From Parcubacteria group bacterium (GTDB lineage Bacteria; Patescibacteriota; Minisyncoccia; Phycocordibacterales; UBA2100): 64,000 bases of DNA. Position 1 is the first letter of the stretch. The number at the start of each line of letters is the position of its first letter. Made by a program: the position numbers and the translations under genes. The stretch is taken from positions 9,718 to 73,717 of the forward strand of contig CALRGX010000002.1 of NCBI GenBank assembly GCA_943358385.1, written 5' to 3'. This document shows, piece by piece, positions 13,903 to 21,976 of this stretch. Under the pieces are notes generated by a model. It saw only the letters and a program-made list of their open reading frames with translations, was not told where the DNA came from and made no database searches.

Positions 13903-14736
13903 GTGAAGCAGTACCTCGACCTGCTCCGACACATCCGTGAAAAAGGCGTGCAAAAAGGAGACAGAACCGGCGTCGGCACCATCAGCGTGTTTGGCTACCA
14001 GATGCGTTTCGATTTGGCCGCAGGGTTTCCGATACTCACCACCAAGCGCGTGTTTTTGAAAGGTATCATTCACGAACTCCTGTGGTTCCTGAAAGGAGAC
14101 ACTAACATCGGGTACCTCAAAGCGAATGGTGTTTCGATTTGGGACGAGTGGGCCACCGCAGAAGGTGACCTTGGTCCCGTGTACGGCAAACAGTGGCGCG
14201 CGTGGGCAACCTCTGATGGTCGCACCGTGGATCAGATCGCTGAGGTGATTGCACACATTAAGGCAAAGCCGAATTCGCGCAGGCTCATCGTTACGGCGTG
14301 GAATCCGGCAGATATGCCAAACGAGGCACTCGCACCTGAAGTGAATGCGGCACAAGGGAAGATGGCGCTCGCCACCTGCCACTGCCTCTTTCAGTTCCAC
14401 GTGGCTCATGGAAAACTCAGCTGCCAGCTCTACCAGCGCTCGGCAGACGTATTCCTGGGTGTCCCGTTCAATATAGCCAGCTACGCACTCCTCACGATGA
14501 TGATTGCACAGGTGTGCGATTTGGAACTGGGCGAGTTCATTTGGACTGGTGGGGATACGCACCTGTATCTGAATCATCTCGATCAGGTCGACCTGCAGCT
14601 GTCACGTGAACCGCTTGCGCTGCCACAGATGCGCGTCAATCCCACCGTGAAAGACATTGATGCTTTTCGCTTCGACGACTTCACCTTGGAGAAATACGAC
14701 CCGCATCCGGCGATTAAGGCGCAGATTGCGAAGTGA
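13903..14736 (+). CDS. thyA: thymidylate synthase ThyA (canonical, folate-dependent)
   Basis: GTG start after an AAGGAG RBS. Catalytic region [51 protein letters not shown] is near-identical to the E. coli ThyA active site. Confidence 0.9.
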
Positions 14737-14739
14737 AAC

Positions 14740-14777
14740 ATGCAGGCAAGTCGAAGACTTGCCTGCATCCTGTTTTT
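14740..14777 (+). terminator. strong rho-independent terminator after thyA
   Basis: atgcaggcaagtc-gaa-gacttgcctgcat followed by cctgttttt. Confidence 0.75.
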
Positions 14778-14793
14778 AGGAAAAAATTTTCAT

Positions 14794-15747
14794 ATGGAAC
14801 TACCAGCGTACCTAAAAACACTGTACCGACACTGGCCTCATCATCAGGATACTTCTGCTGCAATGCTGCGCGCGGAGAACGTTTGCGCAGATGAGGTCCT
14901 GTGGCGCAACATGGAATACTTCATTGAGGAGCGCATGCGCGTATGGGAGAAGAAAACGTTGGGTGGCGAACCCCCATACACGGAGGATCCCATCCTAGCG
15001 ATGTATCGCTTCTGCAACATCTTTCGAGAATTTGATCGACAAACCATTGAATTTCATACGATACTGAATCCACTGCGTGACGATTTCCCACTGTGGCTTT
15101 TGAATATGTTTTACCTGCGCATGGTTGCGCGCACAGAGACTGCGCGTGGTGTGGGTCTACTGTCTTTTAGTGAAAGCGATAACAAACATTTTTACGAGCG
15201 GCTGATGGCCTCGGCGAGACCGCGTTACGGTACGCCGTATGTATTCCCCGTGAGCGTCATACTCAAAAGCCGCACACCAACGCGCGAAAAGTTTATTGCA
15301 CACTATCTACCGTCAGTCATGAACAGTATTGCTCAAGAAGTGGCAACATGGGACCGTCTATCGGTGTACGAAGGTGTGCACCGCATACTTCCGCTTTTCG
15401 GTTTCAATCTGAAATTTCTGTGGACTGAAGTGTTGATCGATGTGGCGTATCAATATCCAGCACGCGTCGACCTCTTCGGTCGCTTTCCTGTGGGGCCAGG
15501 TTCGTTGCCGACTATGAAGCGCGTTGACTCGCACATGGATCCAACCTGTCTCGTTGCCATGCTGGCGCAAGTACCATTCCAGACAGGGCTAACATACGAA
15601 CGCACGCCCTTGCTTCTATCTGCTGAAAACTGGGAAGGCATTGGGTGCGAGTTCAGAAAATACACCAATCTATCGCAAGGAAAAGGAAGGAAAAGAAAAT
15701 TCATGCGAGAAGCGGCCGGACCTTTTGGTCCGGCCGCACGGTGTTAG
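14794..15747 (+). CDS. uncharacterised 318-aa protein inside the thymidylate gene island
   Basis: ORF starting after the thyA terminator (MELPAYLKTLYRHWPHH...YRFCNIFREFDRQTIEFHT...). Its stop overlaps the stop of convergent folA by 4 nt. No P-loop, HAD, PRT or ThyX motifs recognised. Confidence 0.55.
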   Translation: MELPAYLKTLYRHWPHHQDTSAAMLRAENVCADEVLWRNMEYFIEERMRVWEKKTLGGEPPYTEDPILAMYRFCNIFREFDRQTIEFHTILNPLRDDFPLWLLNMFYLRMVARTETARGVGLLSFSESDNKHFYERLMASARPRYGTPYVFPVSVILKSRTPTREKFIAHYLPSVMNSIAQEVATWDRLSVYEGVHRILPLFGFNLKFLWTEVLIDVAYQYPARVDLFGRFPVGPGSLPTMKRVDSHMDPTCLVAMLAQVPFQTGLTYERTPLLLSAENWEGIGCEFRKYTNLSQGKGRKRKFMREAAGPFGPAARC

Positions 15748-16239
15748 AGAACATTTCGTTGCCACACTTCAAATTGTGCCGGGTGTGTATCACCGGCGCA
15801 TTGCATAATCTGAGCGCGGTGCTCGCGGTGCCATTCTTCCATGGTGATGGTTGGAAAGTAGGTATCACCCTGTGTTTCAGCAAACACTCGCGTCACGTAG
15901 AGACGTTCGATAGATTGGTGAGCTAGGAACCACCGATAGATTGTTTCTCCTCCGGCGATGATCAGTTCGGTATCTCGCCTCGGCACGCGCAGTGCATCCT
16001 CAGGAGATTGCACAAACGTGACGTCAGCGAGCTGTGCCCTCGCAGTTTTGCTCACCACGATGATGTGCCTACCCACCAAAGGGTGAGGAAGCGATTCGTA
16101 CGTGCGTCTGCCCATAACGAGGGATTTTCCCATGGTGTATTGCCTGAAGCGTTTCAAATCGCTTGGAATGCGCCACGGTAAGGCATTTTTGCTTCCAATG
16201 ACGCGAGAATCGGTCATGGCAACGATAATGCTGAGCATG
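15744..16239 (-). CDS. folA: dihydrofolate reductase
   Basis: AGGAGG RBS. MLSIIVAMTDSRVIGSKNALPWRIPSDLKRFRQYTMGKSLVMGRRTYESL is the DHFR signature. Confidence 0.85.
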
Positions 16240-16292
16240 TGTTTCCTCCTGTTTCTGGGGCCACTGTACGCATCTTGATACAGGAGGGCAAG

Positions 16293-16332
16293 CCCACACA
16301 CCTTAGGCCGCATAGCGGCTAAGGTGTGTGGG
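16293..16332. promoter_or_regulatory. 40-bp near-perfect palindrome in the folA / dCMP-deaminase divergent intergenic region; candidate operator
   Basis: cccacacacctta-ggccgcatagcggc-taaggtgtgtggg: the 13-bp arms are exact reverse complements and the centre is a nested palindrome. Confidence 0.4.
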
Positions 16333-16415
16333 TAAATACAATCTTTTTGACCTTGTTTGAAGGGATGTACCTCGTGCATGCTATTGAGAGCCGTTCCTTA
16401 CCAAGGAGTAATCAC

Positions 16416-17021
16416 ATGTCCAAAAGCAGCAAGCCACTCTCATGGGTCAAAGGTACCGATGCGTCGGTACTTAAACGCATGTTTCCCGACAAGCTTAAAA
16501 AGAACTTTGCTCGGCCAACCATGCTCGACGTCATAGCACAGCAAGCAATAGTTGTATCCAAACGCTCAACATGCCTCTGGTATGAGGTGGGTGCAATTAT
16601 TTTCCACGGCGATATCATTTTGTCGTTGGGCTACAACGGTGCCGCGCGCGGCGATGTTGATCCGCGCCACGCAGGGTGTGCCCGAGTGGTTGGTGGCAAA
16701 TTGCAAGAAGGGCAGGGGCTCTGTCGTGGTTCTCACGCGGAACTCAATGCTATCGGCAACCTTTCAGCAGGAACACAGGGTCTGCAGAATCTGCACATGA
16801 TGGTGACGTTGCATCCGTGCAATACGTGTGCAAAACAGATAGTGAACAAAGGCATCACCTTTGTGCACTACCTGTGGGAGTACGGGCGTGAAGAACATGC
16901 AACCGACTACCTGCGCCGTCTCGGCGTGCGTGTAGAAAAGTATGGGAGCCCGTTCCTCGACGCATGGATTGATCTGAACGACTACCATCCCATCGGCGAC
17001 CGACAATCGCGGCACAGCTAA
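16416..17021 (+). CDS. deoxycytidylate (dCMP) deaminase
   Basis: AAGGAG RBS. Zinc-binding HAELNAI and PCNTC motifs of the cytidine/dCMP deaminase fold. Confidence 0.85.
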   Translation: MSKSSKPLSWVKGTDASVLKRMFPDKLKKNFARPTMLDVIAQQAIVVSKRSTCLWYEVGAIIFHGDIILSLGYNGAARGDVDPRHAGCARVVGGKLQEGQGLCRGSHAELNAIGNLSAGTQGLQNLHMMVTLHPCNTCAKQIVNKGITFVHYLWEYGREEHATDYLRRLGVRVEKYGSPFLDAWIDLNDYHPIGDRQSRHS

Positions 17022-17033
17022 AGGAGAGTTGCG

Positions 17034-17456
17034 GTGGAAATAAAAGTCGTAAAATTAGTGCCCGAGGCGACTTTGCCATCGCGCGCACACCCCACTGATG
17101 CAGGGCTCGACCTTTTTTCAGTGGTGGCACATAGTGTGCCACCGCAAGGCAGAGTTCTCATTGGTACCGGTATCGCCGTTGCCCTCCCCAGAGGATATGT
17201 GGGGTTGGTGTGGGGCCGCAGTGGCCTTGCCCACAAGCACGGCATTGCGGTGCTGGCTGGAGTCATGGATGCGTCATACCGAGGCGAGTGGAAGGTTGTC
17301 CTTCTGAATACCGGACATATGCCATTTCCTATCGCACCGGGCGACAGGATTGCCCAGGTACTCATTCAGCGGGTGGAGCTTTGCTCTGTTGGTGAAGTGC
17401 TTTCTCTGCCCTCAGGTGAGCGTGCGGGAGGGGGGTTTGGCAGCACTGGGCTCTAA
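17034..17456 (+). CDS. dut: dUTP diphosphatase (dUTPase)
   Basis: GTG start after GGAGAG. Motifs AGLDLFS, GRSGLAHKHGI, GDRIAQ and the C-terminal GGFGSTG. Confidence 0.9.
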   Translation: MEIKVVKLVPEATLPSRAHPTDAGLDLFSVVAHSVPPQGRVLIGTGIAVALPRGYVGLVWGRSGLAHKHGIAVLAGVMDASYRGEWKVVLLNTGHMPFPIAPGDRIAQVLIQRVELCSVGEVLSLPSGERAGGGFGSTGL

Positions 17457-17493
17457 GTGTTGATACCCCGCGCACACAGTGCGCGGGGTATTC

Positions 17494-18171
17494 CTATACT
17501 TGTTGAAACGATAGCTCCTCGAACAAAAGCCCTTCCTTCTTTTCAGAAAGTGCGACGCGTAAAACGTCCTGTACACCAGGCATACAATTCTCTGCTGTAA
17601 TCGCTTTTTTAGATAACCACTGTACTTTCTCCAAAGTAGGGGAGGATTCTTTTATGGGCGTTACATTGCTGCCGTAGAACACATGGCAGAGCATGTGCAC
17701 GATGATTTCATCGTGTGCGTCGGTGACAAGTACGTACACAAGGCCTTTCTGAATGAGCGTGGCGCGAAATCCTGTTTTTTCCTGAAGCTCTCTTTCCGCT
17801 GATGCTTGTACGCTCTCGCCCAAGTGCGTTTTTCCATACGGGAAGCCTATTTGCCCCAAAAATGGCTGTTTGCCGCGAGTGTACAAAAGAAATTCGCGCT
17901 GGTTATTTTCGCACACGGTGAGTGTCACTATTTTTGGCTGTGCTCGCACAAAGAAATGTTCAAAATTCACTCCCGTCGTAAAATGCACACCTTTGGTGGT
18001 TAAGGTGTACTGCCCGCTACTCTGCTTGATGTACCCGTGGCGTACCAACGTTTTCAAATGGTAGCTGAACTGGTTGCCTTCAATACGGGCGGGCTTTAAG
18101 TCGCTGTAGCGTAAGCGCTTGCTGCGGCTGAGAGCTTTCAACACTTGTTTTTGAATCAGATGCATCTCCAT
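17494..18171 (-). CDS. winged-helix DNA-binding domain fused to a C-terminal Nudix hydrolase domain; putative ligand-responsive regulator
   Basis: N-terminal wHTH-like LKALSRSKRLRYSDLKPARIEGNQFSYHLKTLVRHGYIK. Nudix box GKTHLGESVQASAERELQEKTGF fits GX5EX7REUXEEXGU except that the second Glu of the EE pair is Lys. Confidence 0.65.
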   Translation of the reverse strand: MEMHLIQKQVLKALSRSKRLRYSDLKPARIEGNQFSYHLKTLVRHGYIKQSSGQYTLTTKGVHFTTGVNFEHFFVRAQPKIVTLTVCENNQREFLLYTRGKQPFLGQIGFPYGKTHLGESVQASAERELQEKTGFRATLIQKGLVYVLVTDAHDEIIVHMLCHVFYGSNVTPIKESSPTLEKVQWLSKKAITAENCMPGVQDVLRVALSEKKEGLLFEELSFQQV

Positions 18172-18284
18172 GTGGGTAGGATACTACAGCGCGCTGTATT
18201 TTTGAGTCAAGTCGTCTCGACCGAAAGGCTTGCGTATGTACGCTAACCCACTACACTCGCGTGAGGCAACAAGGAGGATGCACC

Positions 18285-18899
18285 ATGAGTTTGTTTGCAG
18301 TGTTAGACGGTGGTGAGGGAAGTGGCACGACCACGCTCTCGCACAGGCTTCACGCACGGTTTCCCAATAGTATTCGCACGCGCGAGCCAGGTGGCTCGAG
18401 CTTGGCGGAAGAGTTGCGTAGCCTTATCTTGCGCACTGAAGCAGCTGCATATGATGCTGAAACAATGTTTGCCGCTTTTTGGGCGGCACGGCGCGATCAT
18501 ATGCGGGAAATCATCATGCCTGCACGAAAGCAGGGTCGCATGGTCTTTTCCGATCGTTTCGATTCTTCTACCTGGGCGTATCAAATACGTGGCCAAGAGC
18601 AATCGCAGCTGGTCGATTTGTTCTGGGCTATGCGCGCACATTACCTGAAAGACTGCGCACCGGACATGTACATCATTCTGGATGTGCCGCCAGAAATGGG
18701 AGTCGCTCGAGCGAAATCTCGCGGCGGAGAGGTAACCCACTTCGATTTGGCCGAGATGGCATTTCACCATCGCGTGCGCGCCGGGTTTCTGGAGTTTGTG
18801 CGCGATTCGCGCACCACACAGCGACAAGCCGTTATCGACGCGACCAAAACGCAAGACTACGTCTTTGCCGAATCCGTTGCCTTTATCGAGGCACACTGA
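18285..18899 (+). CDS. tmk: thymidylate kinase
   Basis: AAGGAGG RBS. P-loop FAVLDGGEGSGTTT and the REPGG motif. Confidence 0.85.
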   Translation: MSLFAVLDGGEGSGTTTLSHRLHARFPNSIRTREPGGSSLAEELRSLILRTEAAAYDAETMFAAFWAARRDHMREIIMPARKQGRMVFSDRFDSSTWAYQIRGQEQSQLVDLFWAMRAHYLKDCAPDMYIILDVPPEMGVARAKSRGGEVTHFDLAEMAFHHRVRAGFLEFVRDSRTTQRQAVIDATKTQDYVFAESVAFIEAH

Positions 18900-18966
18900 A
18901 ATCTGGATTTCGGTCCTTTGCCCGCCGCAGCTGTCCTGCGGCGGGCTTTTCATTTAGAATGCCTGG

Positions 18967-21355: not shown

Positions 21356-21976
21356 TCACGCAAACCAATCCGCATCATCGGTAATCGCCCAGAGAATGAG
21401 CGATGCCGCGGTTCGATGAGGCTGCCAGCGCTGTGCGCGCTCGGCAGCCTCTTTTTGTGTCGGCGTTGCGGGCAGGCTATCCAGGCGTGCAATGCCTTTA
21501 CGTAATCCTAAGTCACCCGGTGAGAATACGTCTTCGCGCAACAGTGTAAACATCAGAAACATTTCAACCGTCCACGGGCCGATGCCATGGATCTGCACCA
21601 GCTCTTCTCGAATCGTGTCATCAGGCAACGTGTGGAGCGATGCGAATAGTTTTTTCTTGGTAAGCGCTGTTTCAGAAAGGGCGCGTAGTGCTTTTATTTT
21701 TCCAAACGAAAGGCCAGACGCACGCAGCTGCATGTCGTTCATTGCCATGATTTTCCGTGGAGCAGGTGTTTCTTTGGGGAAGAGTGCGAGAAAGCGTGTC
21801 CATATCGCGCGCGCGGCTTTACCCGACAGCTGCTGCCCTACGATAGAACGACATAACGACACAAACGGATCCTTCGGCCTGCGCTCGCTTGGTGCGAGGG
21901 CCTCTTTGTGTTTAAGCGCCGCTGTGTGTAGCTTTGCGTCCACTTTTTTGAAATGGTTCAGCGCCTTTTTCGACAT
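21356..21976 (-). CDS. HhH-GPD superfamily DNA glycosylase (AlkA / 3-methyladenine glycosylase II-like)
   Basis: HhH-GPD motif LVQIHGIGPWTVEMFLMFTL...D. Confidence 0.7.
   Translation of the reverse strand: MSKKALNHFKKVDAKLHTAALKHKEALAPSERRPKDPFVSLCRSIVGQQLSGKAARAIWTRFLALFPKETPAPRKIMAMNDMQLRASGLSFGKIKALRALSETALTKKKLFASLHTLPDDTIREELVQIHGIGPWTVEMFLMFTLLREDVFSPGDLGLRKGIARLDSLPATPTQKEAAERAQRWQPHRTAASLILWAITDDADWFA

Follow-up and report, generated by a model that had tools for sequence, protein, structure and literature searches.

A stand-alone HMUDK_hel protein in a thymidylate gene island of a Paceibacteria genome: conservation, gene neighborhood and a proposed DNA-directed function

Introduction

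Which function might be served by a protein that is encoded directly between thyA and folA, among the genes for thymidylate synthesis, in a bacterium of the Candidate Phyla Radiation (CPR)? The question is raised by a Paceibacteria (CPR) genome, from which we analyzed a stretch of 64,000 nucleotides of contig CALRGX010000002.1 (hereafter the window; all coordinates are positions in this 64-kb window). A preliminary description of this DNA had listed thyA, folA, dut and tmk together with genes for a dCMP deaminase and a winged-helix Nudix protein, and had pointed to an open reading frame (ORF) in their midst as a candidate new player in thymidylate or deoxynucleotide metabolism. The product was thought to be 318 residues long and to contain no recognizable motifs. 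Neither statement was correct: the protein has 317 residues, and it gives a full-domain match to the Pfam family HMUDK_hel (PF18723) as well as a match to phrog_2396, a family of unknown function in PHROGs.

HMUDK_hel is one of two genes common to all thymidine-hypermodifying phages, and the single-gene version in CPR bacteria, beside ordinary thyA, folA and tmk, offers a cellular route to study the function of the family. We rate the chances as about even that the protein is a DNA-directed enzyme which acts with a cysteine nucleophile on C5 of uracil/thymine-type bases and is tied to thymidylate metabolism. If DNA is its substrate, the pyrimidine handling of minimal-genome bacteria would gain a new enzymatic step, and the protein may point to a modified thymine in CPR genomes or to a new repair route there. 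The question is directly testable, since the CPR ortholog is a simple, soluble-looking protein of about 300 residues with a high-confidence structural model and a candidate Cys-Glu active site.

The ORF Encodes a Member of the HMUDK_hel Family

The match to PF18723, a family formerly named aGPT-Pplase clade 1, scored 54.5 bits (cut-off 25) and aligned residues 38–292 of the ORF product to positions 5–273 of the 281-position profile, which makes the family membership secure. A profile built from the CPR proteins was aligned by hhalign to PaMx11 gp50 (94.6% probability, E = 6.7e-8, 236 columns) and to the HMUDK_hel protein of the E. coli DS-4 system (93%). The ORF had no match in NCBIfam or PADLOC, and no relevant PDB entry was retrieved by sequence, whether the query was the protein alone or the profile.

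More than 590 homologs of about 300 residues, which are 59–74% identical to the protein, were identified in a search of 5.8 billion proteins, and PF18723 is the sole domain in all 120 homologs that were listed. Those with names are from Parcubacteria, Paceibacterota, Nomurabacteria and similar groups, and they are labeled “hypothetical,” “nucleotide kinase domain-containing protein,” “putative DNA base hypermodification protein” or “aGPT-Pplase clade 1.” The ORF product contains no Walker A motif (G-x4-G-K-[ST]) and matched no kinase model in Pfam or NCBIfam even at E-values up to 10; because there is no P-loop, the protein is, as judged from its sequence, not a kinase, and the labels “nucleotide kinase” and “hypothetical” are misleading for the CPR protein. 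An exhaustive HMM search recovered 2,297 representatives at 50% clustering, 28 of which had E-values of 1e-30 or lower. By sequence comparison, the CPR proteins form a tight clade within a large family of mostly stand-alone proteins, with occasional fusions to an AAA_28 kinase (P0254) or to a PHD finger (P0195). The start codon at MELP is fixed by 29 orthologs.

The HMUDK_hel family itself and its presence in bacteria are already known, but a tight chromosomal CPR group that is devoid of the phage accessory enzymes and accompanied by canonical thyA, folA, dut and tmk appears not to have been described before. When we searched the literature on Patescibacteria for PF18723, HMUDK_hel or base hypermodification of DNA, no reports were returned.

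Several of the metagenome-assembled genomes (MAGs) that encode these homologs carry titles (uncultured Gammaproteobacteria, Woesearchaeota archaeon, Saccharibacteria; loci L006, L012, L017, L020–L022, L027, L029, L032–L035) that look like automatic mislabels, since their proteins are 51–70% identical to the Paceibacteria protein and several of the loci share the nusG-rplK…argS synteny. The family also has a eukaryotic member, P0203, in the green alga Cymbomonas. The fusion to a PHD finger was seen in a metagenome sequence on a 1.3-kb Logan contig, and it hints at a chromatin- or DNA-level role.

Predicted Fold and Conserved Residues

An AlphaFold2 model based on 30 orthologs is all-alpha, with 16 helices and a pLDDT of 91.1; the sole internal stretch of low confidence is an invariant loop at about residues 141–160. 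In a Foldseek search of BFVD, the best match was to the 5-hydroxymethyldeoxyuridine (5-hmdU) DNA kinase gp186 of the Bacillus phage SP10 (E = 5.9e-10, TMq 0.69, 23% identity), and further matches were to proteins of phiRSL1, PhiW-14 (gp72), Lucky3 and a Microbacterium phage and to Pplase1, with E-values from 6e-10 to 1e-4 when SP10 is included. Weaker matches, down to E = 2e-3, were to proteins with an amino-acid:DNA transferase (AADT) domain. Nothing in the PDB was significant, the best chain being the AADT PUGT (8Z2N, E = 0.78). The helical domain of gp186 is homologous to the ORF product, but gp186 fuses it to a kinase, whereas the ORF product has no P-loop kinase domain. The preliminary description had proposed profile and structure comparisons in search of a nucleotide-binding fold: hhalign, AlphaFold2 and Foldseek agreed with the family assignment, and no P-loop or kinase domain was found.

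Residue conservation was counted in an alignment of 119 diverse representatives of the family. R47, R78, D81 and G236 are present in all 119, C285 in 118 and E286 in 117, while N75, D65, R109, D216, K289, Y149 and F208 are each found in more than 89%; all of these are invariant in 30 CPR orthologs. When F73, G234-P235-G236 and Y290 are added to the set, conservation ranges from 89 to 100%, and eight of the positions do not vary in alignment A3, which comprises 50 sequences. P61 and T63 are near-universal as well. The protein in the window has every near-universal residue of the family. The motifs of the protein are YRFCNIFRExD (residues 71–81), FLWTEVLID (208–216), GPG (234–236) and ENWEGIGCEFRKY (278–290), followed by the basic tail GKGRKR (296–301). 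The tail pattern G-x-G-R-(P/K)-(K/R) is conserved and resembles an AT-hook, and the protein has an isoelectric point (pI) of 8.9.

The E281-x3-C285-E286 element (ENWEGIGCEF) parallels EVEHTLCEF in gp50 and EVETILCKW in PUGT. In PUGT, E243 and T244 bind metal and C247 is the proven nucleophile; in PUGT and the other Pplase2 proteins, the cysteine attacks C6 of a flipped pyrimidine (PMC11472151, PMC8989533, PMC13458397). The AADTs (ADDT, PF18724; including PaMx11 gp46, which is PUGT, 8Z2M/8Z2N; M6 gp51; and the Pplase2 proteins of YuA and SH-Ab 15599) are all-alpha and distantly similar to helix-hairpin-helix (HhH) proteins, as is the ORF product, and the two appear to share E-x3-C on a C-terminal helix, in which the Glu and Cys may correspond to those of PUGT, and a G-x-aromatic…D helix. 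Differences are that the ORF product has no match to PF18724, that Glu212 occupies the aligned position of Lys150, the PUGT residue to which the amino-acid donor binds, and that 5-phosphomethyldeoxyuridine (5-PmdU), the phospho-activated substrate of the AADTs, has no evident source in CPR bacteria. Profile-profile comparisons of HMUDK_hel with AADTs (the CPR profile against gp46, and the 119-sequence family profile against gp46 and against a 120-sequence AADT profile) never reached significance (E-values from 0.03 to 0.6); from the modeled structure and the shared motifs, we infer that the two Pfam families may nevertheless be homologous.

The conserved Cys-Glu pair also bears on the possibility that the protein is not an enzyme but a DNA- or base-recognition module that binds DNA or recruits enzymes, as the name “helical domain” implies. 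Such a module would agree with the accessory position of the domain in the SP10-type kinase, with the dispensability of M6 gp55 in vitro, and with the annotation of related phage ORFs as terminase small subunits and the location of intermediate relatives next to terminase-small-subunit-like helix-turn-helix (HTH) proteins. However, a Cys-Glu pair that is retained in 117–118 of the 119 representatives, along with about 15 other polar residues that hardly vary, is what one expects of an active site and not of a binding surface, and the identity of 55–74% across CPR classes likewise makes a non-catalytic role improbable.

Thymidylate Synthase Homologs Are the Dominant Partners in Viruses

Viral relatives were collected from IMG/VR, in which at least 461 stretches encode the family, and the best 80 loci (L046–L125) were examined. 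A gene of the thymidylate synthase (TS) family was present in 71 of these 80 loci, or in 34 of 38 when the loci were clustered at 60% identity. It was invariably on the strand of the HMUDK_hel gene and usually no more than 3 kb downstream; all but one of the 71 were of the PaMx11 gp51 type (70/71). P-loop kinases were found in 13 and AADTs in five of the 80 loci, which are lower bounds given the few tblastn queries, and in 58 loci, a gp51-type TS homolog was accompanied by neither a base kinase nor an AADT that could be detected. The dominant partner of the family is thus a TS homolog and not the eponymous kinase. The pair of a TS-like protein and Pplase1 looks like the core module, with the hypermodification clusters that include a kinase or an AADT as a minority. 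In PaMx11, the kinase gene (gp49) is followed by HMUDK_hel (gp50) and the TS-like gene (gp51), the latter two being adjacent, and TS and “aG/PT-PPlase1” have been called “partner” genes in pelagiphages (PMC9599517).

The stand-alone phage proteins (PaMx11 gp50, M6 gp55, PhiW-14 gp72 and the pelagiphage “aG/PT-PPlase1”) belong to the same Pfam family as the CPR protein, are similarly about 300 residues long and share with it YRFCN..RE.D, E..D, GPG, E...CEF.KY and the G.GR tail. Like the ORF, they have a TS-family neighbor on the same strand (PMC9599517). The sequence identity between the phage and CPR proteins is only 19–29%, and the CPR clade has an additional N-terminal segment (MELP..LYRHW..H) and additional invariant PRFGTPYVFP, TPTRE and LSAENWEG motifs. 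The partner in phages is a gp51-type TS, frequently accompanied by a base kinase plus an AADT, as compared to canonical ThyA and dihydrofolate reductase (DHFR) in CPR bacteria, where the gene is chromosomal and vertically inherited, unlike in phages. In E. coli, the validated defense operon DS-4 (“NTTI”) consists of genes for a TS-like protein, an adenylate-kinase-like dNMP kinase, a PF18723 protein, a TIR protein and Nmad2 (PMC13092281).

Alternatively, the protein could be a soluble-nucleotide enzyme or a regulator of the dTMP pathway, acting on dUMP, dTMP, 5-hmdUMP or thymidine, for example as an N-glycosidase, a phosphorylase or a partner subunit of ThyA or Tmk. Every neighbor in the island of the window acts on free nucleotides, the partners of the family in DS-4 are a TS-like enzyme and a dNMP kinase rather than a DNA kinase, the 58 viral loci mentioned above have a TS-like gene alone, with no base kinase or AADT detected, and the three invariant arginines could bind a 5'-phosphate, as in ThyA. 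Pairs of a TS-like hydroxymethylase and an N-glycosidase, such as MilA/MilB, provide a precedent. On the other hand, the only characterized relatives flip bases in polymeric DNA (PMC11472151, PMC8989533), fusions join the family to a DNA kinase and to a PHD finger, the tail is basic and AT-hook-like, and most CPR loci have no neighbors in nucleotide metabolism. On balance, we consider a role at the level of free nucleotides unlikely. The earlier suggestion of a new player in thymidylate metabolism has gained strength from the family assignment, from the TS-like partner in 71 of the 80 viral loci and from DS-4, but the protein is probably not a soluble-nucleotide enzyme and is not a motif-less orphan.

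Two relatives that are intermediate to the CPR clade, P0133 and P0138, were found on phage-like contigs (L126, 151–1858; L127, 5297–6948), where they are translationally coupled to a gene for a 235-residue protein. This protein is terminase-small-subunit/HTH-like in L126, and the copy in L127 had no match in Pfam. Some phage records (e.g., H9, H14) annotate HMUDK_hel-like ORFs as “terminase small subunit.”

Conservation and Gene Neighborhoods in CPR Bacteria

We compared the window to 41 CPR loci, 37 from genomes and four from metagenome contigs. The CPR clade of HMUDK_hel is tight, with identities of 55–74%. The protein in the window is 55–63% identical to its counterparts, as compared to 41–45% for ArgRS, 37–47% for Tmk, 46–64% for ThyA, 53–65% for L11 and 62–68% for NusG in the same loci. 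The conservation of HMUDK_hel thus equals that of L11 and NusG and exceeds that of ArgRS, Tmk and ThyA.

In nine loci (L001, L017, L019, L022, L027, L028, L030, L032, L044), the gene is located between nusG-rplK and argS, with one or more dTMP-cycle genes no further than two genes from HMUDK_hel in each of these island loci. A dCTP deaminase gene is present in six island loci, thyA in four, the gene for serine hydroxymethyltransferase (SHMT) in two and tmk in two (three if L001 is included, where it is five genes away). Among all of the approximately 41 CPR loci, thyA is adjacent in only 4–5. The folA gene is near HMUDK_hel in L001 and a few genes downstream in L032. The complete island is retained only in L001, the closest genome locus, which is from a Candidatus Paceibacterota MAG and has the same gene order as the window. 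The island loci are scattered over a poorly resolved protein tree, which suggests that the island is an old arrangement that several lineages have kept, HMUDK_hel being its most constant member. The gene appears to have resided ancestrally in a variable dTMP island that is flanked by rplK and argS. According to the preliminary description, homology to an unrelated family in combination with a lack of conserved co-localization would speak against a link to thymidylate. The family is not an unrelated one, and the co-localization is kept in about 22% of the CPR loci, with unrelated neighborhoods in the others, such that synteny is lost only in part.

A second group of nine loci (L008, L009, L011, L018, L021, L024, L026, L033, L043) is monophyletic. 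Here, the gene is followed by the genes for trigger factor, a LysM/M23 peptidase and ComM, and genes for an ORF6N protein and endonuclease IV are often located upstream in divergent orientation. In L043, this block is about 1 kb, or three small genes, from the rnpA-dnaA-dnaN region. The other half of the CPR loci have no common neighbors, although RuvX and the tau subunit of DNA polymerase III (Pol III tau) occur among them. DNA-related neighbors in the loci without the island thus include endonuclease IV, RuvX, Pol III tau and ComM.

None of the genes of the phage hypermodification clusters (gp51-type TS, 5-hmdU kinase and AADT) was found near the CPR copies. Searches by tblastn with gp46, gp49, gp51 and the kinase domain of P0254 identified no such genes in the 64-kb window or in loci L001–L037 and L039–L041, the sole gp51 matches in these CPR loci being to canonical thyA, in L022, L027 and L032. 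In Paceibacteria, the gene is vertically inherited, under very strong constraint and of the housekeeping type.

These data bear on whether the gene is instead an anti-phage defense gene comparable to DS-4, or a passenger derived from phages, in which case the thyA neighborhood would have no bearing on a housekeeping function. E. coli is protected by DS-4, one component of which belongs to HMUDK_hel; viruses account for the great bulk of the family, with at least 461 viral stretches; and some CPR loci have Fic, ORF6N or TrmB-type neighbors. Like DS-4, the window combines a TS-family gene, a dNMP kinase gene and a stand-alone PF18723 gene (thyA, tmk and HMUDK_hel, respectively). However, DS-4 is a sporadic accessory system with TIR, Nmad2 and a long, non-canonical TS of 361 residues, whereas the CPR gene is located among core genes with canonical ThyA and DHFR. 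Neither Pfam searches nor the gene calls indicated a TIR or Nmad2 gene in the window, no other effector is nearby, and there was no match in PADLOC. Moreover, the gene is in conserved synteny with core genes and in a region with the same base composition as the flanks, its conservation is that of L11 and NusG and unlike that of fast-evolving defense genes, and the CPR clade is merely 22–29% identical to viral members. A defense gene or phage-derived passenger is therefore quite improbable.

The neighborhoods also relate to a possible role as a DNA glycosylase for uracil or 5-hydroxymethyluracil that feeds into base-excision repair. The family was first described as HhH-glycosylase-like (PMC5889632, PMC8989533), and an HhH-type helical DNA-binding architecture, as in the HhH-GPD glycosylases EndoIII, OGG1 and AlkA, has been proposed for the superfamily (PMC5889632). 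Endonuclease IV is encoded just upstream in the trigger-factor clade, the island clade has dut and dcd neighbors that lower dUTP, and the CPR protein has neighbors of the base-excision-repair type in some loci. Against this, the protein has no match to HhH-GPD models in Pfam and no significant structural match to these enzymes, there being no glycosylase among the top 50 Foldseek hits in the PDB. It has an invariant Cys-Glu pair instead, and an invariant cysteine is not a feature of glycosylases. D226, which occupies the position of the HhH-GPD aspartate, is only 58% conserved and is replaced by Asn in several CPR orthologs; the glycosylase idea was downgraded because this candidate catalytic residue is not conserved. 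Finally, the genome already has a classical HhH glycosylase, since there is a canonical HhH-GPD gene about 5.6 kb downstream. Taken together, we regard a glycosylase function as highly improbable.

A Proposed DNA-Directed Function

In the function that we propose, HMUDK_hel, an all-alpha protein that is distantly similar to HhH DNA glycosylases, would act on DNA and not on free nucleotides. It would flip out a uracil/thymine-type base (dU, T or 5-hmdU), which would be held between Phe208/Phe73 and a pocket lined by Asn, Asp and Arg residues. Cys285 would attack C6, aided by Glu281 and Glu286, in a TS-like covalent chemistry of the kind demonstrated for the sister family of AADTs, and the basic Gly-Arg tail and the invariant flexible loop (residues 142–165) would contact the DNA. 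The reaction would probably be coupled to the supply of dUMP, dTMP and dTTP or to the U/T state of the chromosome, given that the ancestral position appears to be a dTMP island.

That the substrate is probably DNA is suggested by analogy, because the characterized sister family works on DNA, because the family is fused to DNA kinases (SP10 gp186; AAA_28 in P0254) and to a PHD finger (P0195), because of the basic AT-hook-like tail and a pI near 9, and because of the DNA-related neighbors in other CPR loci. The link to TS follows from the 71 of 80 viral loci, from the DS-4 operon and from the nine CPR loci with ThyA, DHFR, dCTP deaminase (DCD), Tmk or SHMT. We infer that the substrate is DNA, that Cys285 is the nucleophile and that the function is coupled to thymidylate metabolism.

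Several observations weigh against an action on DNA that is tied to thymidylate. The island neighbors, all of which act on free nucleotides, fit a nucleotide-level role equally well. About 78% of the CPR loci have no thymidylate gene within two genes, and the island may represent a single ancestral synteny rather than repeated selection. Since hydroxymethylases, base kinases and AADTs were not found in the CPR loci, the phage substrates 5-hmdU and 5-PmdU may be absent from CPR bacteria. The viral partner is a gp51-type TS, a presumed dUMP hydroxymethylase, and not canonical ThyA. M6 gp55 was dispensable for hypermodification in vitro (PMC8989533), and no reaction has been assigned to any HMUDK_hel protein in the literature that we searched.

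A more specific proposal is that Paceibacteria use the protein as a housekeeping TS-type enzyme on chromosomal DNA, which converts dU or 5-hmdU to T or introduces a thymine modification that has so far escaped notice; we consider this distinctly unlikely. The conversion of 5-hmdU to thymidine in hypermodifying phages was described as “still unknown” by Lee et al. (PMC5889632). If true, the conversion to T would constitute a direct-reversal “DNA thymidylate synthase” and the missing 5-hmdU-to-T activity of the phages, and either the conversion or the modification would explain both the placement among thyA, folA, glyA, dcd, dut and tmk and the extreme conservation of the gene.

Organization of the Island and Transcription Signals

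The features of the island are listed in Table 1. The genes and coordinates of the preliminary description were confirmed by Pfam and by independent gene calls, which are the same on identical public metagenome contigs that encode the 317-residue protein. The island is flanked by secE-nusG-rplK on one side and by argS on the other, and its base composition is that of the flanks. The genes previously proposed to provide a complete route from dCMP/dUTP to dTDP along with folate recycling are all present, but the island has no SHMT gene, and folate recycling is for that reason only partly encoded within it.

Table 1. Genes and predicted hairpins in the thymidylate island of the window.
Feature	Position	Strand	Evidence
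thyA, canonical thymidylate synthase, GTG start	13903..14736	+	PF00303 full length, 401.7 bits
Terminator hairpin 3' of thyA, 13-bp stem followed by CCTGTTTTT	14740..14768	+	Terminator scan; -26.8 kcal/mol, z -5.7
HMUDK_hel ORF, stand-alone, 317 aa	14794..15747	+	PF18723, E 1.5e-14
GC-rich hairpin, 11-bp stem, in C-terminal tail of the ORF	15712..15738	.	-28 to -31 kcal/mol, z about -5 on both strands
folA, dihydrofolate reductase	15744..16238	-	PF00186, E 1.8e-47
dCMP deaminase, ComEB-like	16416..17021	+	PF00383, E 2.7e-13; TIGR02571-like match
dut, dUTPase	17034..17456	+	PF00692, E 4.9e-30
Winged-helix + Nudix hydrolase	17494..18171	-	PF00293, E 9.5e-10, plus winged-HTH matches
tmk, thymidylate kinase	18285..18899	+	PF02223, E 1.4e-28; start as in public-contig gene call
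Terminator hairpin 3' of tmk, 11-bp stem, 10 GC pairs, T-tail	18920..18946	+	Terminator scan

The terminator that had been suggested for thyA was borne out by a hairpin with a T-tail, which is kept in L001 with compensatory changes in the stem. The claim that the ORF is a transcription unit of its own did not hold up: its ATG is only 26 nt past the hairpin (57 nt from the end of thyA, on the same strand), and a promoter scan of the interval between terminator and ATG identified no sigma-70-like site. Read-through from thyA into the ORF is just as possible. At its other end, the ORF overlaps with the convergent folA gene at the stop codons (15744–15747). The last 13 codons of the ORF (REAAGPFGPAARC, residues 305–317; 15705–15747) are missing from all orthologs, and the GC-rich hairpin that encodes this tail is probably the terminator of folA.

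The catalytic residues of ThyA are complete, and the protein is about 65% identical to E. coli ThyA. It contains an insertion of 13 residues directly before the catalytic Cys motif (14305–14350, codons ~135–150), it has MALATCH where MALAPCH is usual, and its C-terminal residue is Lys and not Ile or Val. A function of thyA as dUMP hydroxymethylase was ruled out by the score against PF00303, the similarity to the E. coli protein, the canonical C-terminus and the DHFR neighbor. That tmk encodes a phage-type base kinase was likewise ruled out, by the strong match to PF02223 and the lack of a match to PF18748.

The winged-HTH-Nudix gene is, among the related loci, common only to the window and L001. 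The protein has weak matches to the PADLOC models PDC-S07 and WH_III-A, and it could be a sanitizer of the nucleotide pool or a regulator of the island. Past the end of the island, about 5.6 kb 3' of the HMUDK_hel gene, a canonical HhH-GPD (EndoIII-type) glycosylase gene is located at approximately 21356–21976 on the minus strand, and such a gene is found in L039 at 16563–17183.

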